A stretch of DNA of 30,342 nucleotides from Bdellovibrionota bacterium. Its GTDB lineage: Bacteria > Bdellovibrionota > UBA1018 > UBA923. A model generated the notes under the pieces. The model was not told where the DNA came from. It saw only the letters and a list, made by a program, of their open reading frames with translations, and ran no database searches. Location: contig JBFMCE010000050.1 in the NCBI GenBank assembly GCA_040754655.1, forward strand, positions 1 to 30,342, read 5' to 3'. Shown piece by piece: positions 2,118-26,512 of the stretch (positions are counted from its first letter, which is position 1; every line of letters starts with the position of its first letter). A program made the translations under genes and the position numbers.

Positions 2118-4313
2118 GTGAAACGACTTCCTTTGATCCTCTTTTTTATCTTCATCGGCATTCCCCTGCTCGCTCATAGTGGAGACAGCCCCATTTCTGC
2201 GGGAGGCAAATGTTCTGAATACCTGCTTTCTCCCCGCGACCGGCAAGACGTAGAACCTATTTATCGTCTCGGGTATGGCCAAGAAATGCGCAGGCGTTTG
2301 ACAGAAGCGACCCGTCGCACGGAAGAACGGCTCGGCCCCATCTATCGCAAAGAGATCTATGAGGATCTCAAAAACCTCTTTACCGAACCTCCTGCCCCTA
2401 AGTCGCCTCAAAATGGGTATGAATACAATGGCGTCCACTATGAACTCATCGAGGGGAATGCGCTTCCGAAACTCTCGATGCGACACATAGCTACCGGAGC
2501 GACAAAAAGCGTAGAACTTTCGTCGGTAGAGCCCATCGTAAATCGACCCGATCAATACACTTATCAAATCCTCTCTGTTGATGGAACGTTATCGAATCTT
2601 ATTTACGCAGTTTACGAAAAAAATGGATCTAGTGATGTAAATATTTATGCTTTAGATCTCAATACCGGCAAGAGCCTTCCTATCTATCGCTGCAGTTACT
2701 GCCTTTACAACCTCAGATACTTGGGACACAAAGTAGGTGCCTGGTTGGGCAATAACAACGAATTCTGGATTTCTGGCGACTACTCTCGAACCAAGAACGT
2801 AACCCTCGTAAAAGCGAAATTCAACTCTTCGACCGAAGTGACGATTGAAGAATCGCCAATCGTAAAAGAAGTCTCGCTGTATGGAGACAACACCTCATTT
2901 TCGAATCTAGACGGAGGCATTCTGACTCCAGACTCACGCTTTTTGACGCTTGAGTCACCAAGCCGAGAATACCGTTACAATAAGATCATTTTCACCGAGA
3001 CCGGAACTGAGTTGTACTCAGGATACGAAGGAATTCCTGCCGGAACCAAAGTTGACTTTGCCGTTTACGTTAGCGAAGGAAAGTTCTTAAGGATACTCAG
3101 CCGTGATAGAAAACACTTCTCTATTGAAGAACTCACTTGCAACTCTACCGGATGCAAACGCCGCCAGATTGCCTCTGGTCCCGAAATTCAATTTCTAAAC
3201 GAATTTACGCTAGAAAGTTTCAGCTATAACCTGAAAGCAACCCACGAGAAGATTTACGCTCTCTTGTATAGAGAGCTTCAACCAGAGCTGGTCATTTTTG
3301 ATCTTTCTTCAAAAAGAACCTCTCGCGTCTTCCTTCCCGAAATAAAAAGCGACGCCGGCTTTACAACGGTTGATCCTGCTTCGCCCACGCTAGCGTTCAA
3401 TGGGAAAAATGCGCTCATGGAAAACCTTCAAGTCACTCTTGACCACAAGACACTTGAAATCCTTGAAGTTAAGAACTTGGAGTCGAGGCCATTCAAAGAC
3501 TATGCGATGGAAGTGATGTACTCAAAGTCGCAAGATGGCACTGCCGTTCCGATCACAGTTCTTAAACCAAAAGGCGTCGTGGTTACCCCATCAACGCCGT
3601 TGATGGCCTATGTTTACAGTGAATACGCGACCCCAGGAATTCCTTCCTGGATGGGAAGAGAACATGTCGAGCCCCTCTTAAGACGAGGTCATGTCATCGC
3701 GTTCGCCCATGCCAGAGGCAGCGGCGACTTTGGAACCCCGTGGTACGAAGCGGGATCTCACAAGAACAAAGCGCGGGGCGTCGAGGATTTCGAGAGCGTT
3801 TTAAGAAAGCTGCACGAGTCAGGCATTTCTAGCCCTGATTTCACGGCGATCAAGGGCTTTAGCGCTGGAGGTACAATGATCAGCGTTACACTTGCAAAGA
3901 CCCCTGAGCTTTTCAAAGTTGCCTTTCTTGAGTGGCCTATCACCGACGCTTTGAACTTCGTCAGAGAAACCAAATCTTTTCTTGCGGGGCCTGAGTCATT
4001 GCGGCCCATCGGAAATCCTGACGAGTCTCTTGAAATGAAAAAGATCATCTTTAAAAGATCAGGGTTGCACCTTCTTCAGCCGCCGAAACGCAAAAACATC
4101 GTTTGGTTGACGACCTCTGCCGATGATTTGCAGGTTCCGCCTTCATTTCCTCTAGGCTATGAAACAAAAGCAACACGACTCGGCTATGAAGCTCACCTGT
4201 ACTCTTCGAGCTCGGGCGGTCACCTGGGCTATGAAACACCTGAAAACGGATGGCGGGCTTTGGCATTTGAATATTCATTGCTTGAACACGCCTTCAAGAA
4301 GGAATCAGAATAG
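2118..4313 (+). CDS. Exported S9 (prolyl oligopeptidase family) serine peptidase
   Basis: Signal peptide; beta-rich N-half; SQDGTAVP, HARGSGDFGTPWY, nucleophile GFSAGG, ADDLQV (Asp), GGHLG (His). Confidence 0.88.
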   Translation: MKRLPLILFFIFIGIPLLAHSGDSPISAGGKCSEYLLSPRDRQDVEPIYRLGYGQEMRRRLTEATRRTEERLGPIYRKEIYEDLKNLFTEPPAPKSPQNGYEYNGVHYELIEGNALPKLSMRHIATGATKSVELSSVEPIVNRPDQYTYQILSVDGTLSNLIYAVYEKNGSSDVNIYALDLNTGKSLPIYRCSYCLYNLRYLGHKVGAWLGNNNEFWISGDYSRTKNVTLVKAKFNSSTEVTIEESPIVKEVSLYGDNTSFSNLDGGILTPDSRFLTLESPSREYRYNKIIFTETGTELYSGYEGIPAGTKVDFAVYVSEGKFLRILSRDRKHFSIEELTCNSTGCKRRQIASGPEIQFLNEFTLESFSYNLKATHEKIYALLYRELQPELVIFDLSSKRTSRVFLPEIKSDAGFTTVDPASPTLAFNGKNALMENLQVTLDHKTLEILEVKNLESRPFKDYAMEVMYSKSQDGTAVPITVLKPKGVVVTPSTPLMAYVYSEYATPGIPSWMGREHVEPLLRRGHVIAFAHARGSGDFGTPWYEAGSHKNKARGVEDFESVLRKLHESGISSPDFTAIKGFSAGGTMISVTLAKTPELFKVAFLEWPITDALNFVRETKSFLAGPESLRPIGNPDESLEMKKIIFKRSGLHLLQPPKRKNIVWLTTSADDLQVPPSFPLGYETKATRLGYEAHLYSSSSGGHLGYETPENGWRALAFEYSLLEHAFKKESE

Positions 4314-4327
4314 GCACAAGCTTTGCT
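4312..4327 (+). promoter_or_regulatory. Putative sigma54 (-24/-12) promoter for the SDR gene
   Basis: AGGCACAAGCTTTGCT has exact GG-N10-GC spacing and lies 70 bp upstream of the ATG at 4398. Confidence 0.55.
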
Positions 4328-4397
4328 AAAGATCCCCATACCAATGAACAATTCCCCAAACCTGGTCTTCTTTTTCTAACGCAGAGGTGTTCTAAAC

Positions 4398-5276: not shown

Positions 5277-5363
5277 GAGAACTTTCAAGTTGCCTGAGGA
5301 GAGGGACAATGGCGTGGCGTGCCCTATCTATTCACCATGCTCATCCGACCACCATGACGCTCA

Positions 5364-6500
5364 TCACGGTCCATGAGTCATGCTTTCAATTCTCATTTCA
5401 AAGGCATGCTTTTCGATCGCGCTTCCATCCACCGGAATTGCCCACAATTCCGCATTCCCGCACGCGACATAGGAAGCAAAGACCACATCCCCAATCCGAT
5501 GCACCTTGCTAAACGTGTAGCCTTGGCACTGAGCGGGCGTGCTCTCACAAAGAATCTGCCGGTCTTCTACTGCGATACAGCTCTTGTTTTCGGCAGGATA
5601 CCAAGTGAGCGCAGTCGTCGAGTCTTCAAAAGACCCAAACGAAACATCGATGACTATGCCCGGCAGATCACGCAATTCATTGGCCTGAGCTGAAACCAAC
5701 GAATAGCGAGCCTCTCTCGCTTTAAGGTCTTTTGTCTGAGAAAGATCGCCTGATCCGATCACGAGCACCTGATCTTTTTCAGATTTCGCGGCAATAGGGT
5801 TGGGAACATCGATGGGCATCGTGAACTCGAGTGCAAGACTGCGGATATCAATGATCGCAAGGCCTGACTGGGGTTCTGGGGCCCAGACCCTGCCTCTTGC
5901 CAAACGCTGCGCTACCACTGCCATGCGCCCTCCGCTAAGCCACAAGATCTGAGAGAGCTCAGCAGACGAGTCTGACGGATCTTTGAGCGTGCCCAGATCG
6001 ATACCACCCACACGCTGAGACAGATCAGCCGAAAAGACATCAACGGTATTTGACTCAAAACTGCTCACCCAAACCCTGCCAAGGCTATCACGAGTTGCGT
6101 ACTGAGGGTTTGAACCCTCAGGAAGCTCAATGCGCTTTTCAATCTGGCCATCTTGCCCCTTAAGCCTGCTCAAAGAATCTTTCGTCTGACGGGTGAGCAT
6201 GAAAATGCCGTCGTTTCCATCAGTCAAGAGCCTCACGTCATTTCCGGTGACAAGAATCTCTTTTGACTTTGAATCTGACTTGAGATCAAGGCGAAAAAGT
6301 TTTCCGCCATTTTGGTAATTGGTAGTTGAGAGCCAAAGCCCATTTGCCTGGTTCCTTGTTTTTACCCGTATGTTCTCACTGAACTGCACGGTTGCGCTGC
6401 CAAGCTTCTGAGGTTTTCCCCCACAACTTGTGAAGCTCAAAACGCTAACAACAACCACGTTTGAAATCAAAATGCGCAAAATACGCTGACTGTTTTTCAT
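5364..6500 (-). CDS. Beta-propeller (YncE/BtuG-like) lipoprotein, probable cobalamin-uptake accessory
   Basis: Lipobox FTSC; repeated beta-blade pattern (GSNPQ, GRVWVSS, GLAIID); 4-bp overlap with the upstream receptor gene under a B12 riboswitch. Confidence 0.7.
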   Translation of the reverse strand: MKNSQRILRILISNVVVVSVLSFTSCGGKPQKLGSATVQFSENIRVKTRNQANGLWLSTTNYQNGGKLFRLDLKSDSKSKEILVTGNDVRLLTDGNDGIFMLTRQTKDSLSRLKGQDGQIEKRIELPEGSNPQYATRDSLGRVWVSSFESNTVDVFSADLSQRVGGIDLGTLKDPSDSSAELSQILWLSGGRMAVVAQRLARGRVWAPEPQSGLAIIDIRSLALEFTMPIDVPNPIAAKSEKDQVLVIGSGDLSQTKDLKAREARYSLVSAQANELRDLPGIVIDVSFGSFEDSTTALTWYPAENKSCIAVEDRQILCESTPAQCQGYTFSKVHRIGDVVFASYVACGNAELWAIPVDGSAIEKHAFEMRIESMTHGP

Positions 6501-8224
6501 AGAACAACCTCCAACTGCAAACGCACTTCGCGCTGCATGAATTCTGGCTCGATAATATTCGTTCCGGCAGTCCCCTCAAATTGCAACGGCTGGGTCGCAT
6601 CAGGATAAAGCACAAGGTTTTTTGCCACCAATCTTAGGTCCCACGTTTTCTTTTGATAGCCTACGAAGGCCCCCGCTCGATGAAGTGCAGGAAGCCTTAG
6701 CAACCCCACCGAATCTCGCGCCTCTTCACTTCGGTAATGGTAAGTGGTTCCAAAAAAAACACGGCCCAAGGCGTATTCCGCCTCAGACTTGGCACTTAGG
6801 GCGGGCCTGCCCGGGACGTCGTGACCTCGCTGCCAATTGATCTGAGAATCATTCAAAGCAATTTGATATGTGACAGCGCCAAGCCATTTCATTTTTTCAA
6901 AGTAAGCTTCAGTTTTCAGCTCAGCACCTCTTGCCCAAACCCCTTCAATGGGAAGCGTTCTTGCCTCTACCGGCGAAGTGCCCACTTGCACTGGCGAGTT
7001 TTGACTTTCTTCCGAAAAGACGTGCGCTGAAATAAAAACAGATTCTGTTGACCACCACGGCCCGGTCTCTAGGCGAATCCCGGTTTCACTCGGCAAATCG
7101 AGAGACTCTTTTAATAGGGCGCCGTCGCCAAACCGCTGAATAGCTGTCGGTGTGATAGCATACCTGCGCGCTCTTGCAGCAACCCCGATTGGAATTCTTT
7201 TAGTAGAAGAAAGCTCGGCACCCACGTCCCAAATAAGGTCTGTCTTCTTTGTTTTAAGCGCTGTCTTGTCTTCGAAAACCTCTGAGAGCGCGTGTGCAGA
7301 GAGCTCTAGCCACCGGTTTTTCAAGTTTTCAAGGCGTGCCCTGCCTTTAAGAGAAGAGCGCGAAAACGACAGGTTTTGTCCGCCAAAATACGTCCTCTCT
7401 AAAGACTCATGGTACCCATCAAGGGTTGTAGAGACTTTGCCGCCCCACTGGGCGCGCAGCTGCGCGCCTCCCTTTATGCCATCTGTTGAGCTTGAAGTTT
7501 GATTCAAAGCCCTTGCTTCATACTCTGATTCTTGGATCTGACCATAAGGCAAAACCTCAAACTGCCCGACCGTCAGTTTTGATGAACCAAGCCACTGAGA
7601 CTGTTGTTTTTCACCAAGCATGCGTTGGCTTGCTCGCACATTCGAAAGGCGCCCATCTCTTTCGAGGATCGCGGTCCATTCTTTCTGATAGGCCCTGAGC
7701 TTGACATGGTGCTGTTCGTCTTTGTTTTGAAACGAACGAACCGAATCGTCGCGCTTGTCTTGAAAGGTTCCGCCATTATCCCAATAACGAATATCTCTGC
7801 GATCTCTTGCAAGCCCCGCTTCAATTTCAACATCAGTCTTTGAGAGTTTACCTAAGAGGCGCGCCTTGAGCCTTTGGTCTTGCGAAAGATCTATTTTGAA
7901 TTGTGTAACCCAGTTTCTTTTTTCTAACTCAGGCTTAAGTCTCCAAACGTTGTTACGCCGATGGATAGAAAGATCTTCGGTGCCTTCCAAGGTTTTAAGC
8001 TCAATGCCAAGCTCATTGACCGGGGCATCGAGCACCTTAGCCCCGACTCCGGCTTCTGCTTGAATGGTCTCTTGTTTTCGAGGTTGCGTTTGAGCTGGCC
8101 TCTCAGCCTCAATCACGACTTGAGGCGCAACATAGGCTTCAGTCTGCTGTGTTTCTTGCTGAGCATGTGCCAGCTCACCTGATCCAAGGCACCCCAGAAA
8201 GAGCGCCAAAACAAAATGCTTCAT
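6497..8224 (-). CDS. TonB-dependent receptor-like outer-membrane beta-barrel, probable cobalamin transporter
   Basis: Signal peptide, TonB-box-like VVIEAER, amphipathic beta strands, LVAKNL and terminal REVRLQLEVVL strand; lies downstream of a cobalamin riboswitch. Confidence 0.75.
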   Translation of the reverse strand: MKHFVLALFLGCLGSGELAHAQQETQQTEAYVAPQVVIEAERPAQTQPRKQETIQAEAGVGAKVLDAPVNELGIELKTLEGTEDLSIHRRNNVWRLKPELEKRNWVTQFKIDLSQDQRLKARLLGKLSKTDVEIEAGLARDRRDIRYWDNGGTFQDKRDDSVRSFQNKDEQHHVKLRAYQKEWTAILERDGRLSNVRASQRMLGEKQQSQWLGSSKLTVGQFEVLPYGQIQESEYEARALNQTSSSTDGIKGGAQLRAQWGGKVSTTLDGYHESLERTYFGGQNLSFSRSSLKGRARLENLKNRWLELSAHALSEVFEDKTALKTKKTDLIWDVGAELSSTKRIPIGVAARARRYAITPTAIQRFGDGALLKESLDLPSETGIRLETGPWWSTESVFISAHVFSEESQNSPVQVGTSPVEARTLPIEGVWARGAELKTEAYFEKMKWLGAVTYQIALNDSQINWQRGHDVPGRPALSAKSEAEYALGRVFFGTTYHYRSEEARDSVGLLRLPALHRAGAFVGYQKKTWDLRLVAKNLVLYPDATQPLQFEGTAGTNIIEPEFMQREVRLQLEVVL

Positions 8225-8301
8225 GAGATCTGCGCGGCAATTTTTGCCTGTAAAAAGGAGTAAACGGAAAAAGGTGGTCCCAGAATGATACGAAAAGACA
8301 T
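8221..8301 (-). CDS. 26-aa leader ORF (MSFRIILGPPFSVYSFLQAKIAAQIS) coupled to the receptor gene
   Basis: SD AAAGGAG 5 nt before ATG at 8301; its TGA overlaps the receptor ATG (ATGA at 8224-8221). Confidence 0.6.
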   Translation of the reverse strand: MSFRIILGPPFSVYSFLQAKIAAQIS

Positions 8302-8306
8302 CTTTG

Positions 8307-8455
8307 CTCCTTTGGCCTGATTCCGAGGGCGAATCAAAGGTTTTTTATTTCGGGTATCCTGGCTCATCCGGGTCGTAGTACGTTTACTTCGGCCCAAGAA
8401 TCACAGTTGCGGTCCAGCTGAGGAGTTGCACCTCAATTTCCCCGTTTGGGTTGAA
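8307..8455 (-). promoter_or_regulatory. Cobalamin (B12) riboswitch with SD-sequestering expression platform
   Basis: Minus strand GGGGAA-ATT-GAGGTGCAACTCCTC-AGCTGGACCGCAACTGT...GAGCCAGGATACCCG (B12 box), followed by hairpin CCTTTGATTC-GCCCTCG-GAATCAGGCCAAAGGAG. Confidence 0.92.
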
Positions 8456-8637
8456 TTTGATGAGTCGTTTACGACAAGAGCTGCTGGGTTGTCAATCGAC
8501 GGTGTTAATCAAGTCTTGCGCCCACATCGAGCAGATTTTACCTAGAAACATGGCGAGAAGGCTTGCTCTCTTTATCTCCAGCAAATCCCTGCCTCGCAAA
8601 GTCAATTCTTCGGTCACAAACGACGATAAGAGACCGA

Positions 8638-11280
8638 ATGAACTCTAGTTTTTTCAGTCATAAAAAAGCAGTCTTCGCGCGCATTTGTTCACAGCAGCGG
8701 CTGAAGTTGCGATCACGGGCTAGGTGGTTCACCCACCTCTTATTGAGCCTCTTATTCAGCTTAACGCTAAACATTGATGCACTTAGCAACTCTCGCTCTA
8801 GTCATCTTTGCGGCACAGTCGCTGGCAGAGTACTGGGCTCATTTGAAGAATACCTAAACGCAACCGAAGTTCTGAGCGATTTCAACCAAGAACTCACTGA
8901 CCTTCAACAAGCACACCTCCGTGAAGTCATTGCCCCCATGCTTGGATCGAAGCTTCTCATCAAACATACCGATGGAAGACCACGCGCTTGCGCCGTTGGT
9001 TCTTCTTGTGTCTTGTTTGGCAAGCGCCTGCCAGAAGAAAATGACTTGGCCATTGAATGGAGCGAAACTTCAACTACACCTGAGATCACAGACACTCCCT
9101 CGACCACGACCTTGCATCTGCCTGCGCGGATGAGCGTTGATGAGCTTAGAGCTCACGGTGAAGCATTCATTCAGAATTGGACTATGGGTCATGCACTGCA
9201 CCCATTCATTACAATAAAGAGTGAAAAAGACTTGCTCGGACCAACAGACAAGTTCAAGCTTCGAAAGGTGCAAGCCGCTGCCATTGCGGTAGGCAACAAG
9301 GCCTTTGATGAGGGAAAGAATAGCTTTCTCTATGTCGCGCCTACGGGCACTGGTAAAACTGAGGTCCTCACCAGCAATCTTAGCCGTGAGATGGAAAAAA
9401 CTCAGAATGATTCTAAGTTTCACATCATGGTTGCCCACCAAAATGAGCTTGTCAGTCAATTCAAAGACGATATCAAAAAAGCCCACAAAGGTGGTTTAAA
9501 GGTCTTAGAAGAATTTGACATTCAAACCCTTATTGACCCCAATTTTTACGCCGAAACCTCGCCCAAAAAAGCAAAACTGGTCGCCATTACAATACAAGCT
9601 CTTGTGAAGGCGCTTGAAAAAGCAACACCAGAAGAAATCAGCATGCTTCGATCACGGCTCGGCGTATTGGTCTTTGATGAGGCTCATCACCTGGGTGCTA
9701 AAACTTGGCTTCAGACGGTTAAAACTCTTTTGCATGAGAATCCAAATGCAAAGCTTCTAGGCGCCACGGCCACTCCATTGCATCAGGACGCAAGGATTCA
9801 AGCTCTATTTAACGACTTATTCAATGGCCAAAGTTTCTGGGCATATCTCGATAGTGAGGCACAAAAGGAAGGCATCGCACGAGACACCACTGATGTGATC
9901 GAACAGCTCGATATCGCAATCGGCACTGGCAACCTTGCTCCACTAAAACACTTTTATTCGGTTGATCCCAATTCATTTACTCACGACAACACATCTGTGT
10001 TTGCACGAAAAGATCCCAATAATGACAAATCTGACTTCGAAATTAAACACACGCTTTTGGGTACCGTTGTTAAACGATTCTCGCCACTGATTGATCGCCA
10101 TCGTTCTGGTTTCGTCGCGGCAAATAATATTGTTGAAGCAGGCAGGCTGCAAGAAGCCTTCAGCAAAGCCATGCCGCACAAGAAGTTTGAGGTTTTTCAC
10201 GGAGACCTTACGGCTAAAGAACGTAAACGCATTCGAGACCGCATCGAACAAGGAGAGGACCTATTCTTAATCACGGTAAACCTTTTGGACGAGGGCGTGG
10301 ACTTTCCCAACATGTCTTTGTATATCGATCTCAATCACAGTCTTGGGGTTCGTCAGCTCTTGCAGCGCTGGGGACGAGTGGCAAGAGTAGCGCTTGGAAA
10401 AAAGGGCATTGAGATCGCCACACTCACCGACTGGCGCGATGCCAATCATATTCGAGACAAGATCTCTCTTTTAGAAAAGTTTGCAGTCAAACCCAACACT
10501 GAGAACCCTCACGGGGCCTTTCGAGGCAAATACACCTCGACTCAAGAGAGAAAAAACAATCTCGCAAACTCAAATTCAGAGCCGGCACTTGAAGGCCTTA
10601 CCCCTATAGACGATCACACCAAGCGTGAGCAGCTCTTAGTGCTCTTGCAAGACGCCAGAAATATCTTTGAGAAAGAAAACAAAGCATCGCCACTTGAGCG
10701 GGTGATCAAGAGGGTGGCAGAAGGGAAAGGTATTCCTTCTCAAAAAGAAGATCCTAGTGCATACCAATGGGCTTATCACTTACCAAACGATCCTAATGAG
10801 TGGCCCACGATGCCGGAAGAAGTAAAACAAGCACTCATACAATGGAAAGCGAATCGTAGAACTAATACTAAAACCGGTAAAAATGAAAAAGGCCCGTTAG
10901 AGCGAATAACGAGTTCTGTAAAGGATAAAAAAGGTATTCCCTCTCAGGAAGAAGATTCTGGTGCATACCGATGGGCTTATAATCTACCAGACGATCCTAA
11001 AAAATGGCCCACGATGCCGGAAGAAGTAAAACAAGCACTCATACAATGGAAAGCGAATATACGACCTAGAACTAAATATGAGAAAGGGCCACTAGAGCGG
11101 GTAACAGATTCCGTAAAAGCAGAAAAAGGCATTCCCTCTAAAACAGTGGATTCCGGCGCGTACAACTGGGCTTATCACTTACCAAACGATCCTAATGAGT
11201 GGCCCACGATGCCGGAAGAAGTAAAACAAGCACTCATAGAGTTCAAAGCAAATATCAAACGCAGAACACCCAAAGAGTAA
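8638..11280 (+). CDS. SF2 DEAH-box helicase (ResIII/SSL2-like) with N-terminal hydrophobic signal and three C-terminal repeats
   Basis: APTGTGKT, VFDEAHH, GATATP, LLDEGVDFP, QRWGRVAR. The frame is open from 8563; ATG at 8638 taken as the likely start, which is uncertain. Confidence 0.88.
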   Translation: MNSSFFSHKKAVFARICSQQRLKLRSRARWFTHLLLSLLFSLTLNIDALSNSRSSHLCGTVAGRVLGSFEEYLNATEVLSDFNQELTDLQQAHLREVIAPMLGSKLLIKHTDGRPRACAVGSSCVLFGKRLPEENDLAIEWSETSTTPEITDTPSTTTLHLPARMSVDELRAHGEAFIQNWTMGHALHPFITIKSEKDLLGPTDKFKLRKVQAAAIAVGNKAFDEGKNSFLYVAPTGTGKTEVLTSNLSREMEKTQNDSKFHIMVAHQNELVSQFKDDIKKAHKGGLKVLEEFDIQTLIDPNFYAETSPKKAKLVAITIQALVKALEKATPEEISMLRSRLGVLVFDEAHHLGAKTWLQTVKTLLHENPNAKLLGATATPLHQDARIQALFNDLFNGQSFWAYLDSEAQKEGIARDTTDVIEQLDIAIGTGNLAPLKHFYSVDPNSFTHDNTSVFARKDPNNDKSDFEIKHTLLGTVVKRFSPLIDRHRSGFVAANNIVEAGRLQEAFSKAMPHKKFEVFHGDLTAKERKRIRDRIEQGEDLFLITVNLLDEGVDFPNMSLYIDLNHSLGVRQLLQRWGRVARVALGKKGIEIATLTDWRDANHIRDKISLLEKFAVKPNTENPHGAFRGKYTSTQERKNNLANSNSEPALEGLTPIDDHTKREQLLVLLQDARNIFEKENKASPLERVIKRVAEGKGIPSQKEDPSAYQWAYHLPNDPNEWPTMPEEVKQALIQWKANRRTNTKTGKNEKGPLERITSSVKDKKGIPSQEEDSGAYRWAYNLPDDPKKWPTMPEEVKQALIQWKANIRPRTKYEKGPLERVTDSVKAEKGIPSKTVDSGAYNWAYHLPNDPNEWPTMPEEVKQALIEFKANIKRRTPKE
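10690..11253 (+). repeat. Three tandem intragenic repeats (204 and 195 bp period)
   Basis: 39-bp identical core TGGCCCACGATGCCGGAAGAAGTAAAACAAGCACTCATA at 10801, 11005 and 11200. Protein unit PLER....KGIPS...D..AY.WAY.LP.DP..WPTMPEEVKQALI..KAN. Confidence 0.97.
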
Positions 11281-12032: not shown

Positions 12033-12563
12033 TTATACAGACCAAAGTGTATGAATAGGCAGTCCGTCTAAAGCACGACGACCCTTTAAAAAATCAATCT
12101 CAAGCAGACACGCTGCGCCCATAACCTCGCCCCCAAGTTGCAACGCAAGCGACTTTGCTGCGCGAAGGGTGCCGCCAGTTGCAAGCACGTCATCAATGAG
12201 AAGCACTTTTTCCCCGGCAGAGATCGCGTCACGATGGACTTCGAGTACAGCCTCTCCGTATTCCAACGCATAGCTTTCTTGCACCGTCTGCCAAGGCAGC
12301 TTTCCTGCCTTTCGCACCGGAATCAAGCCTGCACCAAGCCGCTCCGCCACTCCGGTTCCAAAAAAGAACCCACGGCTCTCGATAGCCATCACCTTCTTGA
12401 TGCCTTTAGATTGAAAAGGTTTTGCCAACTGTTCGCAAAGAAAACTGAGCGCCCCTGGTGAAGCAAGCACCGGCGTGATGTCTTTAAAGAGAATTCCTTT
12501 TTTTGGGAAATCAGGGATATCGCGAATCAATCCCCTGACTTGTTCTAAAGAGTATCCTGACAT
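12033..12563 (-). CDS. apt: Adenine phosphoribosyltransferase
   Basis: IRDIPDFPKKGILFKDIT, IESRGF, VRKAGKLP, LEYG, PRPP motif VLLIDDVLATGGT. ATG 12563 preferred over the upstream GTG at 12587. Confidence 0.96.
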   Translation of the reverse strand: MSGYSLEQVRGLIRDIPDFPKKGILFKDITPVLASPGALSFLCEQLAKPFQSKGIKKVMAIESRGFFFGTGVAERLGAGLIPVRKAGKLPWQTVQESYALEYGEAVLEVHRDAISAGEKVLLIDDVLATGGTLRAAKSLALQLGGEVMGAACLLEIDFLKGRRALDGLPIHTLWSV

Positions 12564-12614
12564 AAGCGTCCTTTCTCTCGATGTCACCGAGGCAAGGACA
12601 CTTGTGACAATCGA

Positions 12615-13190
12615 TTACTTTTGCGCAACCGCCGGAGATTTGAGCTCTGGCAAATACAAGAGTGGATCTTGCGCCGTCTCGCCCTTTCGGATCTCAAAAT
12701 GCAAATGAGGTCCCGTCGCCTTGCCTGTGGCCCCTACAAAACCCACAAGTTGGTTTTGAGTAACACGCTGACCACGTTTGACCAAGTTCTTTCGATTGTG
12801 CGCGTAAACGGTCGCCATGCCATCATCATGTTTGATCACGATCATGTTGCCATACCCGTTGATTCGACGCGCGCTGTAGATAACAGTCCCCTCTTTTGCC
12901 GCAAAAATCGGAGTCCCTTTGGGTGCTTTAATATCGATGCCTTCATGGAAGTCGCGCTTGCGTTTTCCAAAGAGCGACGAAATTTTTCCAAGGCGTAGCG
13001 GCCAGACAAAACCTGCGTCCGAATCTTCCAGAGCAGCGTCTGATAAAGAGAGCGTCGTATTGACCTGAGGAAGTTCTTGCGGCGCGTCCCCCTGCAAAAT
13101 TCCTCTCTGGCCCGTATCGACCATCCTGGTGGTGGCACAACCAAAAACACTGACCGACAAAAGTACCGCGGCACACAATTTAAGAGTCAC
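12615..13190 (-). CDS. M23-family metallopeptidase lipoprotein (NlpD-like, no LysM)
   Basis: Lipobox VFGC; HEGID, YAH and HLHFE zinc motifs intact. Confidence 0.9.
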   Translation of the reverse strand: MTLKLCAAVLLSVSVFGCATTRMVDTGQRGILQGDAPQELPQVNTTLSLSDAALEDSDAGFVWPLRLGKISSLFGKRKRDFHEGIDIKAPKGTPIFAAKEGTVIYSARRINGYGNMIVIKHDDGMATVYAHNRKNLVKRGQRVTQNQLVGFVGATGKATGPHLHFEIRKGETAQDPLLYLPELKSPAVAQK

Positions 13191-13963: not shown

Positions 13964-13988
13964 GTTCTGATCTTATCACACATCCCCG

Positions 13989-14711: not shown

Positions 14712-14724
14712 ATTAAACTTTCCT

Positions 14725-17178
14725 TTAACGCGCGCCAGAGGGGTTCACAAGGCCTCCCCCGTCTTGCAAGTTCGCAAAACCTTCACCCGTCAAATTGATG
14801 GGAACGGTAAGATTCACCGCAACTTCGGGATTATCGATCCTCCAAGCCCCATCCACCACAATCTTATAACACTGTGACGGGCTCTGGTACGTCAAGCTTG
14901 CGCGCACATCTTTTACCCTGCCCGGCACATCAGTGCTGTTTTGAGAAAACGGAAACTGGTAGCTGATTCCGCTGCCAACGCCAAAGTAGTCGTTGATCGA
15001 CCAAGTAATTGACCCACCGATTTCCTTTGAATTCGCGGCGACCTGGTCGGCATTGTAAGACAAGGTCATGCTGCGTTCAAACTGCAAGAGGCGCCGTCGA
15101 TACCTTGCAAACACGTAAGAAGCGGCGAGCTTGTAGGTTTTAGCCTGCTCATAAGGATAATAAAAGAATTCACCACGCCCCTGAACCCTCAAAGTGTCCA
15201 CCGTTAAGAACGTAAAGAAGCGAGAAAGAGGTCGCTGATCTTCGGCGTCTTTCTGAAACTCTTTGAAGTTCACGCTCTGTCCCGAAGTAAGACCGACGAC
15301 TTTTCTGTATTCGGCTGGAGTTCCTTCGCTTTTCAAAATCAATTTGTTTCCTAGGCGGTAAGAAAGCGAATTTCCTAACGGCACGAAGTAGCGCTGGTCT
15401 TCGGACGTAACGGGAACAATGTCGTACTGGTCGAACTGATAACCGCCCGTCTTGAGCTGTTGGATGAAGGGATGCCGCTGGTCTTCTTGGACAAACGGGA
15501 TGTTTGAGTAAATCAGCGAGGGACGAAAGGAATGCTTGATGCGATCGCCGTATACTCGGTCTACGGTCGTCGCTGCTTCAGCCTGCCCAAGCAAATAGCC
15601 CCGGTTCGTGCTCGGGGCAAACCGGTCGTCGAACTGATAATGATAGCTTCGATACTGCACTGAAGGAACCAACTCCACCACTTCCGCAAGCCTTGCCGTA
15701 TAGTACATCTCGGGAACGATATTGAAGCGATCAGATTTGCGCAGCGGGGTTTGCCCGGGGATGAAATTGCTGGAAGAGGTCAAATCCAGCCCTTCATCGG
15801 AAATAGAATCAAAGCTAGGCCCTCTACGGTCAAAACGTGAGTAATTAGCGCTCACGCCCATGTGCAGGGGAAACGCTTCGGCAAGCCTGTGATCGACCGA
15901 TGCGACGGTCAATGAGGGAAGCACTTGCACCGTATTTGAATCAAATCCCGTGAGTTCCCGGGTGAGCAAACTTCGTATGCGTTTTGCGTTGGCCGAGACC
16001 GTGATCTCGCGGGTTGTGCGCGACAATCCCCCCTCAGAGACAAGGGCAGGTTCGGCGCGCCCCGGGATGTCTCCGATCTTACGCGAATAGTCTCGGTCAG
16101 AAGCATCGAGCCAAAGGGCTTTTTGGTCAATCCCAAAAGGGAGCGCAAGATTGTGCTGGTAATTCAACGCCCAGCGATTGAAATAAGGGTCGCCGACGAA
16201 AGTCTTGTCTCTTAAATAATAGCTATTGAGTTGCCCCCTGCTCCGCGAGCTCAGCATGTACCGATACTCAAGCTCGCCGCGATCACCGCGCTGGGTATCT
16301 CTGCCGACCGCGATCGTGGCGTCTTGACTGCGTGAGATCGCCCAGAAGTAAGGTTGTACGAGGCTGAACCCGCCGCTTTGCGAACGCACTTGAAATCGTG
16401 GGAAAAGGAACCCGCTCTGTCTTTCTGTTTTGACGGGAATGACGGCGTACGGGATGTACATCGCCGGCGCTTCATTGATCTTGATGAACACGTGGCTCAA
16501 GTAAGCGTATCCATTCACGGTGAGATCGATCGTCTTGCCCGCGATTTTCCAGCTCGCTGGGCAGTCACGGCAGGTCGTGTACTCACCGTCGTAGGCCTTG
16601 AAATGATTGATTGAGAGCCTCTCGATTTTTTCGCCCAGCAACTGGTACTTGTCGCTCTCAACGCGGCCATCCTCAATGATGCCGGTCTCGGTGATGAAAT
16701 TGAAATCCATCTTCGATCCATAAATAACCGTGTCCGGCGTGAAATAAACGACATTGCCTTCGGCATGCAGCTGCTCGGTGCTCAAGTCCATCACGGCGTA
16801 ATCAGCGGTCAAGAGCTCTGATGGGCGCCGGATATAGACGTTCCCAAAGCATTCAAGCCTGTTGTTCTCAAGGTCCCGAAGACTGCGAGTGCAGCTCAAG
16901 TGCAGAAACTTGCCTGACGTCAGAAGTTTCGTCCCAGACCTCACACCAGCGGCCTCTTCCGGAGTCTCTTCTTCAATCCTCGGGTTTGAGCCGTTTGACG
17001 GAGCCTTCTTTCGGGGCGATCGCGTGTTTTTTTGAGCCGTCGGTGCGGCGCTGGGCTCTTCGCCAGCGGCGGCCGTAGCCTCGCTCTGAGCATACACGTT
17101 AGCCCATGCGGCCCCGAAAAAAAGGAAAAGAACGAAGACGAAAATCAGCTTTTTGTTTTTCGAGCAGATTTCGACCAT
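14725..17178 (-). CDS. lptD: LPS-assembly outer membrane protein LptD
   Basis: Signal peptide, OstA-like N-domain, YTTC, RQSGFLFP, PYFWAISRSQDAT, YQSPSQCY. Confidence 0.92.
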   Translation of the reverse strand: MVEICSKNKKLIFVFVLFLFFGAAWANVYAQSEATAAAGEEPSAAPTAQKNTRSPRKKAPSNGSNPRIEEETPEEAAGVRSGTKLLTSGKFLHLSCTRSLRDLENNRLECFGNVYIRRPSELLTADYAVMDLSTEQLHAEGNVVYFTPDTVIYGSKMDFNFITETGIIEDGRVESDKYQLLGEKIERLSINHFKAYDGEYTTCRDCPASWKIAGKTIDLTVNGYAYLSHVFIKINEAPAMYIPYAVIPVKTERQSGFLFPRFQVRSQSGGFSLVQPYFWAISRSQDATIAVGRDTQRGDRGELEYRYMLSSRSRGQLNSYYLRDKTFVGDPYFNRWALNYQHNLALPFGIDQKALWLDASDRDYSRKIGDIPGRAEPALVSEGGLSRTTREITVSANAKRIRSLLTRELTGFDSNTVQVLPSLTVASVDHRLAEAFPLHMGVSANYSRFDRRGPSFDSISDEGLDLTSSSNFIPGQTPLRKSDRFNIVPEMYYTARLAEVVELVPSVQYRSYHYQFDDRFAPSTNRGYLLGQAEAATTVDRVYGDRIKHSFRPSLIYSNIPFVQEDQRHPFIQQLKTGGYQFDQYDIVPVTSEDQRYFVPLGNSLSYRLGNKLILKSEGTPAEYRKVVGLTSGQSVNFKEFQKDAEDQRPLSRFFTFLTVDTLRVQGRGEFFYYPYEQAKTYKLAASYVFARYRRRLLQFERSMTLSYNADQVAANSKEIGGSITWSINDYFGVGSGISYQFPFSQNSTDVPGRVKDVRASLTYQSPSQCYKIVVDGAWRIDNPEVAVNLTVPINLTGEGFANLQDGGGLVNPSGAR

Positions 17179-18032: not shown

Positions 18033-18063
18033 GTGAATCTTGCCCTACCGTAACAGCTCTTGA

Positions 18064-18819: not shown

Positions 18820-18822
18820 CCG

Positions 18823-20049: not shown

Positions 20050-20109
20050 TCGTCATCCTTGACCTTAACCAAATCCGTAAAGACTATCGCGACACGAACT
20101 TGGAGCCTT

Positions 20110-21178: not shown

Positions 21179-21238
21179 AAAAGCACTTCCTATCTTTGTT
21201 TGCGAATTGCGCCTTATAATAAGAACAAGGAGGCTGCC

Positions 21239-21592: not shown

Positions 21593-21683
21593 AGCGCGTT
21601 TTCAATTCTTTTTCTGCTGCGCCGGCCAGAATAGGCTTTAAGTTGGAATGCCTGCGTCTGCATAACGGTTCATCTCGTCGCGG

Positions 21684-22178: not shown

Positions 22179-22295
22179 CGTAGGTTTAGTTTAGACCAAG
22201 ATCAGGGCGCTGACGAGTCTTCGAATAATCACGCAACGCATTATATACTATAGACATTTTGTCCACTTTGTAATAGCAACAAATTCGATTTACCT

Positions 22296-24359
22296 ATGAG
22301 AATTTCAAAGCCATTTCCTCTTTTAAACGCCCTAGGCTTTTGCCTCATCCTTGCCTCTGGCCTTTATTCGGGCGAAACCTTGAGTGCCGACGCCGAGCTC
22401 GGGTCTCCTGGCTTGAAGTGCCAAAGCGCTTTACTCTCCCCCAAAGATCTTGAAGAGATGGCCCTCCGTATCTCTACCGAAAGCGATCAAAAAGATCTGC
22501 AGGCTTCTCGTTTGATGGTGCGAAGAAGCTGGCTTGAATCATTGCAAGCAGACCTTGATCCTGCGTTAGAGGGTCTATTAAAACGAAAGGTGATCTCTAG
22601 ATTTGCCCAGGCCGAAATTTACAACTCCTCTGACCCTCTTCCGCGTTGGAAGAACGAGACTGAAGCTGTCGAAGTCGAAGCCCGAAACTTCGCTGCACTT
22701 CTCATCCACCGCTTGCTTGCTGAAATAAAAGATCCCAAGACCGCTTCTGAAATTGAAATCGCCGGCAGACTTGCTCTCTTCAAAGTCAAATCAAAGACTG
22801 AGCTTGAGCATCTTTACGAGCTTCCTGTTGAAGCGTATGTGCAATTCTATGAATATCTTGTCCAAGGGATGCTTGTTTCAGACCCGCTTGTCGCCCAGAA
22901 TATTGAAAAACATTACACGTCGTGGCGGCGAAAACACCAGGTTCTTGTAGCGATGGGCCAATGGATCGGTGAATGGTTTACCAAGCGCCCTCTGCGACTG
23001 CATCCCCTCGATAAAAAAGAAGTCGTCATTCCTTCAGAAGAGGCGCCAAAGACTTCCATCCCTCTACCCGGAGATGAACTAAGTCTTACGCTTGCCCTTT
23101 CGCGGAATGAAACGCTATCGGTCAGCTGGCTAGCCCTTGGCACATTCACACCACAGCAGCGCCTCTTTCACCTCGCCATTCGAGCCTCACGCCTCAACTT
23201 AAACCAGTTAAATGAGCTTTTTCAGCGGTCTAACGCCAAAGACCTGCTGCCTTCTGAGCTTTTTCATGAGCTTCAGAAACGTCGAGAGGCCTTACAGCGC
23301 ATTAACGATGATTACACTCTCTATGATGAGCTGCGTGGTCGTCGGCTGCGAGACCGTTCTCAGCTGCAACCGATTGATGAATCTACGACAACTCTTGGGC
23401 AGTATTCTCAGGCTTTCCTTGAGAAAAACATAGACTTTATCGGCGACAGTGCCGTGCATAAAGCGCTCAGTGCGCATAATAGAAGAGGATCTGCCCGCTT
23501 TTTCTCGGCTGAAATAGTGGAAAAACTAAAAGAACGAGAGAAACTGTACAAAGAAACTGAAAGCACAAAGAGCCAGATCGAAGAGGCTAAAAAACAAAAA
23601 CCAAAGCATGAAGAAGAGCTCCGCAGTGTCAGTGCCTCTGTTGAAGCTAAGATTCATTACCTCGCCCATTTGAAAGATCGTCTTTCAAAACTTGAACTTT
23701 TTGCAGCTTCAATGGAAGCGAATTCACCCGTCAAAGATCCAATCCCATTGCTGGATGTGCATGAAGTTTTAGACGCCCTGCATACCTGGGAAAAATCAAC
23801 TGATTATTCGACACCGCTTCTTCGAATGAAAGCATTGATCGCATTCGAAGAAATCTTTAGCCCTTACGGCTCAAAGCTAGATGCCGGGGGTTTTGAACGG
23901 GCGATGGATGTTGCTTTTCGAAAAACCTCTTCCTTCATTAAGACTTCGACAGACCAAGGGGACCGGCAAGTGGTGGAGCTATTCCTGAACGTCTTTCGTC
24001 GCCATGCCCAACACATCGAAAAGACAGCAGCCACTGAAAAACAGTGGATCGCGACGTTTACCGAACACTTTGGCGTATTACTACCATCACGGAACATACA
24101 CGGCGTTTGGAGACCGATTTTAGAACAAGTTGGCGATCTTTCATGGACCACAAGACCTGCGTACGCCCGAGAAAGCGCACAAAAAGAAGTTCTGCGCGGT
24201 CAAAGAGAGCTCGAGGAAATCGAGAAAGAGGTCTCTGAAGCCAAAGAAAAACGCAAGGCCATGAGTGCAAAAATCAGCGAGCTCAAAGAAAAAATCATCG
24301 CTCTAGAAGGCAAAGAAGCAGAGCTCAGTGCGACAACGACGGTGCGTGAGGAGAAGTGA
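22296..24359 (+). CDS. Hypothetical exported alpha-helical/coiled-coil protein (paralogue 1)
   Basis: 687-aa ORF with N-terminal hydrophobic segment and two heptad-rich regions; shares motifs with the next ORF. Confidence 0.8.
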   Translation: MRISKPFPLLNALGFCLILASGLYSGETLSADAELGSPGLKCQSALLSPKDLEEMALRISTESDQKDLQASRLMVRRSWLESLQADLDPALEGLLKRKVISRFAQAEIYNSSDPLPRWKNETEAVEVEARNFAALLIHRLLAEIKDPKTASEIEIAGRLALFKVKSKTELEHLYELPVEAYVQFYEYLVQGMLVSDPLVAQNIEKHYTSWRRKHQVLVAMGQWIGEWFTKRPLRLHPLDKKEVVIPSEEAPKTSIPLPGDELSLTLALSRNETLSVSWLALGTFTPQQRLFHLAIRASRLNLNQLNELFQRSNAKDLLPSELFHELQKRREALQRINDDYTLYDELRGRRLRDRSQLQPIDESTTTLGQYSQAFLEKNIDFIGDSAVHKALSAHNRRGSARFFSAEIVEKLKEREKLYKETESTKSQIEEAKKQKPKHEEELRSVSASVEAKIHYLAHLKDRLSKLELFAASMEANSPVKDPIPLLDVHEVLDALHTWEKSTDYSTPLLRMKALIAFEEIFSPYGSKLDAGGFERAMDVAFRKTSSFIKTSTDQGDRQVVELFLNVFRRHAQHIEKTAATEKQWIATFTEHFGVLLPSRNIHGVWRPILEQVGDLSWTTRPAYARESAQKEVLRGQRELEEIEKEVSEAKEKRKAMSAKISELKEKIIALEGKEAELSATTTVREEK

Positions 24360-26512
24360 TGAGAGCGTATTGCAACGACCGCCGTATCACAGAAACAAGC
24401 CCTAAGAACAAAGGGCTTGCAACTAGAAGCCATCTCATAAGTATTTCTGTAGCGAGGGCGCACCAAAAGACACCTAACTTTCACCGTAAAAAGCAGTTCT
24501 TTCTTTTCTTTCTCTTGCTATGCATTTTAAGCCCACACAAGTCTCTTGCTACTCAGACCAAGGAATCCGAGCACTGCGAGGCTGCCCTGGTGAAGTTTGG
24601 TTCTTACCTCGATCAAAAAACGCTTGTCCAAGACCTTCTGAGCTCTGGAATTGCCAAGACTGAATTTGAGGCCGCCCAACTTGCCCGCGCATCAATAGCA
24701 GACCACCTGTACGAAGCAATGGCGCCAGAGCTGCACGAGATCATTGGCAATGGAGTCTTGCACGAGTTCCTGCAACGTTCTCTACATTTGAATAAACGTG
24801 GCCTGCTGACCAAACGCGTGAGAGATGCCGTTTACGGAGGTCTTCAGAAAGAAATTGAATTAGACAAACTCAGTAAGACTGAAAGCGGAGACACTGTGTT
24901 TTCGCTTCTTCAAGTGATTGGTGGAGGATCAATAGAAAAACCGGTTGCTCCTGAGAGCGCTGTGGCATTGCTCAAACTCAGAGACGAATATTCGTTAAGG
25001 CAACTGAGCGAGCTTCCCCTCGAAGAATATTTTAAACTTACGGACTGGCTTGAACATGTTTTGCACCTCCCGGACCACCCCTTTTTCATCGAAGCGGAAC
25101 AAAGACTTTCTCGTGGCAGGCGCTTCCTCGGCTGGCTAAAAAATGGCTATAAGATTCTCGTAAGAAGACCTGTAAAAAACGAAGCTCTTTCGATAGGCAT
25201 TGATTACACGCCTGAAAAAAACCTATGGGGCCTTGCAAGTTACAAGTTTGGCAGCGCCTATTTCGTAAAATTAGACGCTGTGATCCGAGACGCGAACCGT
25301 CTGCAAAACTCTTACTTTTTGGCCCGTTACGCTCAGTACCTTTCAAAGCAACAGCTAGACATGGTCTCCAAGTCTTTCCGATTCGATGAGATGCCCCCAA
25401 TCGTTGCCGAGCGCCTTAAGGAACAACGTGAGAGGCTTGAATCAGCGCTAAAAGATCTTGAGGTCAAAAACATGCTTCAATCGCACTTGCTCTCTGTGCC
25501 CAAAGAGCTCTTGACGGCACTTAGTGAGATTACCAACCACGAGCCCGGCAAGCTTTTAGATGAGCTTCTCAAAACCCCTGCCGCAGCAACGCTTAAGAGT
25601 GCACAAATGCTTCCTCTCAAGAAAGCGTTCTCAAGACGCACCGACCTGATCTCTAAAGAAGCCCTTGAGACTTTAGAGATGATGGCGAAACCAGAAGAAA
25701 CAAGGATTGAACTCAAACCAAGGCTCGAAGCAGTAAATAAAGAAATCAACAGGCTCGAACGTCGCCTTGGAAAAAGTGAAATCATTGAACTTGAAAGTGA
25801 CATAAAAGCGACTGACTCTGAGATTGCGGCTTTCAAAAAAATCGAAGAACAGCTTCAAGGCTTTGCTCGTGAACTGAGCACTTCCCCAGAATCTTCGAAA
25901 TCGCCATACGGCAAGATTAGCTATGGCCAACTGCTTGATGCCATTTATCGCTGGAACATGGAATTGAGAACCGGTCGCTATAAGGTCCCAGCTCAATACC
26001 AAGCAGCTCGAAAACTAAGAGAGCTCTTTAACCCTTACTCTTCATCTTTGCGACCGGAAGAATTCAAGACTGCTGTTGAAGTCTTGTTTCAACCCATAAA
26101 AGATTACTGGAGAGAATTCCCGACTGAAATAAAGATGGAGTTCATCTACACAGTCCGGCGTCACGCCCAAAACATTGCCGAACTCACTCAGGACTCCACC
26201 GATTCGGTCAAGAAAACGATCATACAAACATTCAGTCTTGACCTCGACCCTAGTACAGTGGGCGCCGATCACTATCCAATATATACCTATGAAATTCTTC
26301 CAAGTCTTTCCAGGTCGTGGCAACCCAGACCTCGCCCTACGCAAGAAGAGGTAGAAAGCGACATTCTAACGCTCCAACAGCTGATCAAGTCATTAGAGTC
26401 TAGACGCGACTTTGACGCGAAATTAATTAAAGAGCACCGCTCTGAACTTGAAAACTACCGAAAAGAAAAGGAATCGATCGAAAGCCAACTTAAAGAACTT
26501 GAGGGAAAATAA
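24356..26512 (+). CDS. Hypothetical exported alpha-helical/coiled-coil protein (paralogue 2)
   Basis: 718-aa ORF overlapping the upstream stop by 4 bp; hydrophobic FFLFFLLLCIL followed by SLA; start uncertain. Confidence 0.8.
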   Translation: MMRAYCNDRRITETSPKNKGLATRSHLISISVARAHQKTPNFHRKKQFFLFFLLLCILSPHKSLATQTKESEHCEAALVKFGSYLDQKTLVQDLLSSGIAKTEFEAAQLARASIADHLYEAMAPELHEIIGNGVLHEFLQRSLHLNKRGLLTKRVRDAVYGGLQKEIELDKLSKTESGDTVFSLLQVIGGGSIEKPVAPESAVALLKLRDEYSLRQLSELPLEEYFKLTDWLEHVLHLPDHPFFIEAEQRLSRGRRFLGWLKNGYKILVRRPVKNEALSIGIDYTPEKNLWGLASYKFGSAYFVKLDAVIRDANRLQNSYFLARYAQYLSKQQLDMVSKSFRFDEMPPIVAERLKEQRERLESALKDLEVKNMLQSHLLSVPKELLTALSEITNHEPGKLLDELLKTPAAATLKSAQMLPLKKAFSRRTDLISKEALETLEMMAKPEETRIELKPRLEAVNKEINRLERRLGKSEIIELESDIKATDSEIAAFKKIEEQLQGFARELSTSPESSKSPYGKISYGQLLDAIYRWNMELRTGRYKVPAQYQAARKLRELFNPYSSSLRPEEFKTAVEVLFQPIKDYWREFPTEIKMEFIYTVRRHAQNIAELTQDSTDSVKKTIIQTFSLDLDPSTVGADHYPIYTYEILPSLSRSWQPRPRPTQEEVESDILTLQQLIKSLESRRDFDAKLIKEHRSELENYRKEKESIESQLKELEGK

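Follow-up and report, generated by a model that had tools for sequence, protein, structure and literature searches.

What is a short cysteine motif doing behind the export signals of large proteins that otherwise differ? The question is raised by a stretch of 30,342 bp from a Bdellovibrionota bacterium (GCA_040754655.1, contig JBFMCE010000050.1; hereafter the window), which is the entire contig C50 of a metagenome-assembled genome, G000 (3.78 Mb, 196 contigs, 50% G+C, completeness 90%, contamination 0.95%). By Pfam, the contig is largely housekeeping (L19, TrmD, RNase HII, SurE, AccD, and an LptD-like protein), and its four large plus-strand genes, P0001, P0002, P0003, and P0004, are lineage-specific. 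An earlier note on this DNA had claimed that all four products carry an export signal followed by a Cys, which the translations and Cys positions confirm, and had taken the Cys segment for a modular N-terminal tag on diverse cargo. Our analysis of the genome and its relatives argues that this tag is a selected, position-constrained, and lineage-specific N-terminal element that places an unpaired Cys on diverse Sec-type cargo. On dozens of unrelated exported proteins, enzymes of normally intracellular function among them, it looks like an undescribed sorting or tethering tag.

The evidence begins with the exported proteome. The gene set of G000 comprises 3330 genes called with a codon-usage model, and as exported we took the 868 proteins flagged by our own hydropathy and charge heuristic, not SignalP, which looks for a positive n-region, a hydrophobic core, and no additional transmembrane segment. 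Cys counts in the flagged proteins are strongly biased toward even numbers (0 Cys in 215 proteins, 1 in 136, 2 in 178, 3 in 55, 4 in 100, 5 in 27, and 6 in 32), with no parity bias among non-flagged proteins, so the set is enriched for truly exported proteins. The same even bias, which is missing from the cytoplasmic proteome, reads as the mark of a disulfide-forming periplasm.

Within this set, 13 of 868 proteins have the motif that the earlier note had singled out, CxxxL[LFV], at 5 to 36 residues past the core, compared with 21 of 8012 later windows (Fisher p = 9e-6); it occurs in 12 of 2160 non-flagged proteins. A broader core motif, defined as C..[LIVMFA]L or C...L[LIVMF] at 5 to 32 residues after the core, is present in 39 of the 868 signal-peptide-like proteins, which is 4.4 times the expectation from the rate later in the same proteins (p = 1e-13). 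Around Cys residues in the post-core window, Leu is enriched 2.1-fold at +4 and 1.8-fold at +3, and Pro approximately 2-fold at +6/+7. Furthermore, the density of C..[LIVMFA]L peaks 10 to 19 residues after the core, at 2.07 per 1000 residues versus 0.27 beyond residue 120.

An unbiased scan of 8565 gapped three-residue patterns led to the same element. Its top two patterns were C..LL (18 observed versus 2.58 expected, p = 3.5e-10) and CE..L (17 versus 2.58), both of which survive Bonferroni correction over all patterns; C...LL and KC...L also ranked high, and the remaining top patterns reflected a Ser/Gly/Pro-rich linker composition. The 39 core-tagged proteins yield the consensus (K)-C-[E>S,A,T]-x-[L>A,I]-L. 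The full layout is a signal peptide with a site of the AxA type used by signal peptidase I (SPase I), a short linker rich in Ser/Ala/Pro/Gly, and (K)-C-[ESAT]-x-[LA]-L, after which Pro is common; the median spacing between the end of the core and the Cys is 15 residues. By our heuristic and in the listed sequences, the signal peptides have the positive n-region, hydrophobic h-region, and AxA-type c-region of Sec/SPase I substrates. A motif-first search that ignored n-region length added 14 candidates, including P0003, which the heuristic had missed (45-residue n-region). We estimate that roughly 45 to 50 predicted Sec-exported proteins, or about 1.4% of genes, carry the tag in G000.

Common descent does not explain this distribution. 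Paralogy is ruled out as the source of the tag, because BLAST divides the 69 broadly tagged proteins into 68 unconnected components; the only pair related beyond the tag is that of two methyltransferases, which are 30% identical overall and keep GCE[DK]LLK. An origin at the level of DNA (a repeat, a DNA motif, or recent gene conversion) is ruled out by the diverse codons at the tag across carriers and by synonymous differences between the tags of P0001 and P0002, which indicate that their match is kept at the protein level and is not a recent DNA copy. When 24 tag-bearing N-termini were compared with Pfam-A and NCBIfam at E values up to 1, there was no common family and only scattered sub-threshold matches. 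A literature search, with most subscription journals outside it, returned no account of such a tag, and a comparative-genomics paper on lineage-specific families of Bdellovibrionota makes no mention of cysteine, signal peptide, N-terminal, or sorting. With a constrained position, non-homologous carriers, and first place in an unbiased scan, the modular tag of the earlier note holds up.

The longer form that first drew attention to the tag is much rarer. In a six-frame translation of the whole 3.78 Mb, KCxxxLLSP[RK]D has just two matches, the tags of the peptidase P0001 and of P0002 in which it had been noticed. As claimed, the two proteins are otherwise non-homologous, with BLASTP aligning only the tag stretch (11/26 identities, pair E 0.025). 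The SP[RK]D extension is found in only 3 G000 proteins and lies outside the general tag; LSPxD was counted in 3 of 868 post-signal windows versus 2 of 8012 later windows. The third protein with the extended motif, G000:C89:4958-6385 (…SLKA-CQQKLSPSDLE), is close to KCQSALLSPKDLE of P0002.

A second line of evidence comes from Cys counts. An odd number of Cys was found in 30 of the 39 tagged proteins (22 with a single Cys) compared with 248 of 614 untagged exported proteins (Fisher p = 1.5e-5); for exported proteins with a Cys in the post-core window but no motif, the count was 70 of 196. Among 158 exported proteins with a single Cys, that residue lies inside the post-core window in 49, versus 15.8 expected. 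The proteins encoded in the window follow the same pattern. P0001 has the tag Cys and four others in two close pairs (192/195 and 341/346), P0004 has its tag Cys and one close pair (143/149), and in P0002 and P0003 the tag Cys stands alone after the hydrophobic core, in line with the claim that it is the only Cys of the mature chain in both. By these counts, the tag Cys is supernumerary and predicted to be unpaired, atop an even (disulfide-paired) or zero Cys count.

The tag Cys does not behave as the Cys of a lipobox, as the earlier note had argued. A relaxed lipobox was found in 4 of the 39 core tags, at least one of which is a genuine lipoprotein (OEP, AMIG-C), and in none of the four window proteins, where the residues before the Cys (GGK-C, GLK-C, SEH-C, and SHL-C) do not form [LVI][ASTVI][GAS]. 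Rather than abutting the hydrophobic core, the tag Cys is most frequent 10 to 19 residues beyond it. Canonical lipoproteins are a separate population in G000, seen in a Cys peak at -3 to +5 of the core and in 139 proteins with a relaxed lipobox.

The cargo is unusual for exported proteins. Our Pfam scan covered 40 of the 51 proteins on a first tagged list (two window proteins were scanned separately, and nine others were left out), and 24 of the 40 have no Pfam family. The assigned proteins include a MoxR AAA ATPase of 956 amino acids, a Fic protein with an intact HPxxxGNGR motif, a sigma-70 r2/r4 protein, two S-adenosylmethionine (SAM) methyltransferases, an HD phosphohydrolase, an FGE-sulfatase-like protein, a GH15 enzyme, and a sigma-54 activator (Table 1). 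In the last of these, a signal peptide and tag stand in place of the usual N-terminal sensor domain and directly before an AAA+ domain; Walker A, GSFTGA, and HTH_8 are all preserved. Of the 18 such activators in G000, no other has an export signal; its 17 cytoplasmic paralogues have 1 to 7 Cys each. Candidate orthologs of this activator in the family were rejected, as the best matches are ordinary cytoplasmic activators with sensor domains. No homologs were found for a tagged methyltransferase, and a search for loci related to the tagged MoxR protein returned none. Most tagged cargo is species-specific.

Eight carriers of cytoplasmic type, including the window helicase P0004, have only 12 Cys in 4266 residues, 8 of which are the tag Cys, compared with 43.5 expected from the non-exported proteome (p = 1.7e-8). 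In addition, the net flank charge drops from +3.05 (N side) to -0.18 (C side), as expected of an N-in/C-out topology. Cys depletion and flank charges together suggest that the cargo is adapted to passage through an oxidizing extracytoplasmic space. Judging from their domains, however, the ATP- and SAM-dependent enzymes and the transcription factors among the cargo cannot work in the periplasm, and transcription factors need bacterial RNA polymerase. Whether tagged proteins are enriched for normally cytoplasmic domains had been asked, and the answer is no more than suggestive. Such cargo is present and Cys-poor; its over-representation reached only 5 of 39 tagged versus 48 of 829 untagged proteins (p = 0.08) by a proxy, homologs mostly without a signal peptide, that is a weak control.

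We ran relatives through a pipeline identical to that used for G000, on partial genome samples. The core motif was enriched in two other genera of the same family, G005 (800 kb; 8 of 168 proteins, 6.2-fold, p = 6e-5) and G006 (336 kb; 5 of 69, 17.5-fold, p = 1e-5). It was not significant in two further samples of the family, G003 (316 kb; 1 of 52) and G001 (400 kb; 1 of 118), and it was absent from G017, of another family in the same order (400 kb; 0 of 92), and G044, of another family in the same phylum (400 kb; 0 of 79). The low and zero counts in these four samples indicate that the pipeline does not itself create the signal. With enrichment in samples of three genera, G000 included, the tag marks a subclade of one Bdellovibrionota family. 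As for the organism itself, the best matches of its ribosomal protein L19 are from Bacteriovorax and 'Oligoflexia' metagenome-assembled genomes (62 to 68% identity). These matches place the uncultured organism deep within the Bdellovibrionota, where predation would be a plausible way of life.

Tagged cargo in G005 and G006 mostly has no Pfam family and includes an ortholog of the window helicase, a HEAT-repeat protein, and an S46 peptidase, along with errors (PheS and a GT2 enzyme). Two G005 proteins, L236:16942-18795 and L233:8516-9934, are HisKA plus HATPase_c kinases, one with a GAF domain, in which a sole N-terminal signal-peptide-like segment is followed by a tag-like Cys (CSHYLL and CSKMVT). 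Cleavage of this segment would put the kinase core on the far side of the membrane from the cytoplasm. GH15 glucoamylase orthologs in G000 (G000:C38:29886-31307, L027) and G005 (L077:4412-5734) have C-[ET]-[KQ]-[IL]-L-[RK] after the signal peptide; this Cys, at the edge of the Pfam GH15 domain and conserved in the ortholog, may belong to the fold and not to a tag.

The features of the four window genes, together with the tagged sigma-54 activator, are listed in Table 1.

Table 1. Positions of the tagged genes and their N-terminal elements; coordinates refer to the window unless another contig is named.
Feature	Positions	Strand	Basis and remarks
P0001, divergent S9 (prolyl oligopeptidase family) serine peptidase, 731 aa, tagged	2118..4313	+	Pfam Peptidase_S9 (PF00326), E 7.7e-27, residues 519-728
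P0001 signal peptide: n-region VKR, h-region LPLILFFIFIGIPLL, c-region AHS	2118..2180	+	translation, own heuristic
P0001 tag KCSEYLLSPRD, Cys32 (codon 2211-2213)	2208..2240	+	translation, six-frame scan
P0004, superfamily-2 helicase (ResIII/DEAD/Helicase_C)	8563..11280	+	Pfam; open reading frame starts at TTG 8563, likely start ATG 8638
P0004 export-signal hydrophobic core WFTHLLLSLLFSLTL	8725..8769	+	translation, own heuristic
P0004 tag-position Cys83 (codon 8809), CGTVAG, degenerate motif	8809..8826	+	translation
P0002, 687-aa orphan, mostly helical, coiled-coil-like C-terminus, tagged	22296..24359	+	no Pfam/NCBIfam match
P0002 signal peptide MRISKPFPLLNALGFCLILASGLYS	22296..22370	+	translation, own heuristic
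P0002 tag KCQSALLSPKD, Cys42, sole Cys after signal peptide	22416..22448	+	translation, six-frame scan
P0003, full-length paralogue of P0002	24359..26512	+	open reading frame opens 24356/24359, likely start ATG 24359
P0003 hydrophobic core FFLFFLLLCILS, after 45-residue n-region	24497..24532	+	translation
P0003 tag CEAALV, Cys74 (codon 24575), sole Cys after hydrophobic core	24575..24592	+	translation, motif-first search
Tagged sigma-54 activator: …AQVAHA-NLK-CTELLA, then AAA+ domain, HTH_8	G000:C42:17482-18891 (L039)		Pfam

P0001 has the alpha/beta-hydrolase catalytic domain with a Ser-Asp-His triad that defines Peptidase S9: S582 (in G-x-S-x-G-G), D670, and H702 are invariant in an alignment with distant S9 homologs. 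We found no close homologs; its best relatives are 27 to 34% identical over the catalytic domain only. Its N-terminus runs VKRLPLILFFIFIGIPLLAHS-GDSPISAGG-KCSEYLLSPRD. In an AlphaFold2 model, residues 14 to 53, which include the tag, are coil with a per-residue confidence (pLDDT) below 50, upstream of a first confident helix at 55 to 87; with a mean pLDDT of 55 the model is weak, and it suggests only that the tag region is not confidently structured.

P0002, with the order ...LILASGLYS-GETLSADAELGSPGL-KCQSALLSPKD, matched only itself in a word-indexed database of 5.8e9 proteins, in 40 relatives, and in its own genome, and had no usable match in the Atlas; a joint profile of P0002 and P0003 found no further homolog among 1.84e9 representatives. 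These two proteins are 26% identical over 254 amino acids by BLASTP (E 1e-9) and 24% over their full length. In P0003, the core is followed by the site SLA|T ahead of the tag. The P0002 stop overlaps the P0003 ATG (TGATG, 24356-24361), with a GAGGAG ribosome-binding site within the end of P0002, which suggests that the tagged paralogues are translationally coupled. Tandem tagged pairs were also seen in relatives (G006 L266:3586-6729 / 6862-8874; G005 L224:10812-12065 / 12092-15091).

The helicase P0004 had been called the weakest match, and its CGTVAG indeed falls outside CxxxL[LFV] in G000. No other cargo encoded in the window has a family ortholog, so conservation of the tag can be read only through this gene. 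The sole ortholog, G005:C1:852092-855091 (34% identity), has a signal peptide followed by AVIDQDT-CNELVR; on this alignment the helicase Cys is conserved, and the motif is better in G005. The 3' end of P0004 (10726-11238) contains a 195-bp tandem repeat (2.6 copies, 81% matches) encoding three units of ~65 amino acids (KGIPS...AYxWAYxLPxDPxxWPTMPEEVKQALIxWKAN) with no Pfam family at cut-off.

Two minus-strand loci complete the picture of the window. At 808-1418, a 100-aa HTH_37/HTH_19 protein is encoded directly 3' of a 101-aa open reading frame without a family, a layout that resembles a toxin-antitoxin pair. At 5364-8224, two neighboring genes with a 4-nt overlap, function unassigned and neither matching Pfam or NCBIfam, encode a 378-aa lipoprotein-like product (…FTSCGG) and a 575-aa product with a signal peptide.

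Which known systems does the tag resemble? PEXEL (RxLxE/Q/D), the oomycete RxLR, and the powdery-mildew Y/F/WxC are linear motifs at a constrained distance after the signal peptides of unrelated, rapidly turning over secreted proteins. The tag is likewise a short motif at a near-fixed distance on many non-homologous proteins predicted to be exported, and its cargo is largely species-specific, as is usual for effector repertoires. However, those systems are eukaryotic and use the route through the endoplasmic reticulum, while the tag is bacterial; to our knowledge, PEXEL/RxLR-type motifs have no bacterial counterpart. In bacteria, the N22 segment of CsgA, recognized by the curli channel CsgG, and the surface-lipoprotein export signal of Bacteroidota are post-Sec mature N-terminal segments that select cargo for passage through the outer membrane. 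Both share with the tag a short mature N-terminal segment and the two-step route that we propose for it. Yet N22 is confined to one protein family and lacks Cys, the Bacteroidota signal comes after the lipidated +1 Cys of a true lipobox, and neither is built on an unpaired Cys on diverse soluble cargo.

In its chemistry, the tag recalls two other families. Like the bacterial lipoprotein signal (lipobox; Lgt/LspA), it places an invariant, disulfide-extra Cys after the signal peptides of many unrelated exported proteins. Unlike that signal, it lacks the [LVI][ASTVI][GAS]C consensus, its Cys lies a median of 15 residues past the core and beyond the AxA site, and its conserved residues (E at +1, L/A at +3, and L at +4) follow the Cys. 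Sorting through MYXO-CTERM and myxosortase in Myxococcota offers a closer parallel. In TraA, the Cys lies ~12 residues before a transmembrane helix and an Arg cluster; the proposal is that it acquires a lipid although no lipobox is defined, and that myxosortase, a CPBP protease, then makes the cut (PMC11980579). MYXO-CTERM shares with the tag an invariant Cys that roughly a dozen low-complexity residues set apart from a membrane helix and basic cluster, as well as dozens of unrelated cargo proteins per genome, a restricted lineage, and the absence of a lipobox (PMC11980579). As described there, though, MYXO-CTERM is a C-terminal tripartite element (Cys motif, transmembrane helix, and Arg cluster) with a GCGC-like motif, of which the N-terminal tag is a mirror image, with C-E-x-L-L and an SPase I site between helix and Cys. 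The tag as predicted thus falls outside both Cys-based families. By analogy, it works most like a sorting tag, resembling PEXEL/RxLR/Y/F/WxC and CsgA N22 in its logic and lipobox/MYXO-CTERM in the chemistry of an extra Cys.

How might such a tag work? We tentatively favor, at somewhat less than an even chance, a signal for thiol-dependent recognition and tethering or sorting in a post-Sec step. Sec export and signal-peptide cleavage would come first, and the tag would then serve a second step, its Leu-Leu patch providing the docking contact with a carrier or outer-membrane translocon and its free thiol engaging that partner in a mixed disulfide. This link could restrain potentially harmful cargo until its transfer to the surface or into a target bacterium, where reduction could set it free. 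The sigma-54 activator and the sigma factor among the cargo point to bacterial targets, that is, prey. Alternatively, the tag could be a non-canonical signal for lipidation or anchoring, an N-terminal mirror image of MYXO-CTERM in which an uncleaved hydrophobic segment keeps the Cys near the membrane for lipidation without a lipobox and a dedicated protease cuts before the Cys to give surface or vesicle lipoproteins. We regard this as unlikely, although it has real attractions: the Cys is extra and unpaired, the order of basic cluster, hydrophobic helix, low-complexity linker of ~10 to 20 residues, and invariant Cys mirrors the MYXO-CTERM geometry, and the many unrelated cargo proteins and restricted lineage fit as well. 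Most tagged proteins, however, have a good AxA site between core and Cys, and a cut by SPase I at this site would detach the Cys from the membrane ahead of any lipidation. Moreover, residues are conserved after the Cys and not before it, and a lipid anchor would serve little purpose on a sigma factor, a sigma-54 activator, or a helicase. No partner protease turned up either, no search having been aimed at one.

The Cys could instead have no role in sorting, and form disulfide homodimers or a redox switch that prevents exported enzymes from acting while they are in the oxidizing periplasm of the producer, with the neighboring Leu residues as merely the start of the first helix. An unpaired Cys in an organism whose exported proteome clearly forms disulfides would suit this view, as would the tag region of P0001, modeled at low confidence as a flexible N-terminal stretch that could pair between molecules. 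We consider it quite improbable nonetheless, since it leaves unexplained both the same C-E-x-L-L context and distance from the signal peptide in ~40 unrelated proteins and the export of ATP-dependent enzymes of cytoplasmic type. Last, a low-information motif, a permissive heuristic, wrong start codons, and an after-the-fact definition could have conspired to produce the pattern by chance. The motif was indeed refined after inspection of the data, the heuristic made clear errors (SHMT, RtcB, PNP_UDP, and PheS), and the paralogy of P0002 and P0003 reduces three of the four window examples to two independent ones. Yet the motif stated beforehand was already enriched, C..LL and CE..L lead the unbiased scan after correction, the enrichment was replicated in two further genera while the same pipeline found nothing in two other families, and neither Cys parity nor Cys depletion depends on the definition of the motif. 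We therefore hold an artefact to be very improbable.

Several points weigh against thiol-dependent sorting as the function of the tag. The destination proposed for the proteins and the thiol state proposed for the Cys are read from sequence. The motif is low in information, with one Cys, one near-invariant Leu, and two preferred positions. The heuristic is permissive and crude, flagging 26% of genes; besides SHMT and RtcB, the first tagged list contained PNP_UDP and OEP lipoprotein errors, and of the 39 core-tagged proteins approximately 4 to 6 are likely false positives (OEP lipoprotein, PNP_UDP, HNH, and GH15), with PNP_UDP and HNH called from internal starts. The over-representation of cytoplasmic-type cargo, measured by a weak proxy, is no more than suggestive. 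The relatives are represented by samples of 316 to 800 kb each, and two genera of the same family, G003 and G001, show no enrichment. Finally, tagged genes in G000 do not cluster (2 pairs within 5 genes versus 1.8 expected), and their neighborhoods have no recurrent neighbor family. Presence or absence of Pfam T2SSK in five genomes did not discriminate by tag, with a model that also matched unrelated control genomes, and the 73 G000 proteins common to the G005 and G006 samples are mostly syntenic housekeeping genes and thus uninformative. These three comparisons thus yielded no partner, carrier, or dedicated machinery.

A bolder version of thiol-dependent sorting names the destination. C-E-x-L-L would be an address label by which ATP-dependent effectors, exported through Sec and purged of Cys, reach the cytoplasm of prey bacteria along a thiol-dependent route; as a specific claim, we judge this quite improbable. 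The effectors would be the sigma-54 activator, the sigma-70-like factor, histidine kinases, the helicase, the Fic protein, and methyltransferases, loaded as disulfides onto a translocator and freed by reduction inside the prey. If true, such delivery would be a bacterial counterpart of PEXEL/RxLR addressing combined with reductive release in the style of AB toxins, and it would mean that a predator reprograms the transcription of its prey.

The tag bears on how Bdellovibrio-like predators move proteins past their own periplasm and select the cargo to be moved. A recognizable tag would turn orphan proteins that cannot be annotated into a defined list of candidate effectors and would give a handle for receptor pull-downs. 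It also highlights an unexpected class of cargo, bacterial transcription machinery and ATPases with signal peptides. The tests of Cys parity and Cys depletion can be used on any proteome for finding such tags. More generally, the catalogued bacterial sorting tags, which are mostly C-terminal, would be joined by an N-terminal one based on an unpaired Cys.

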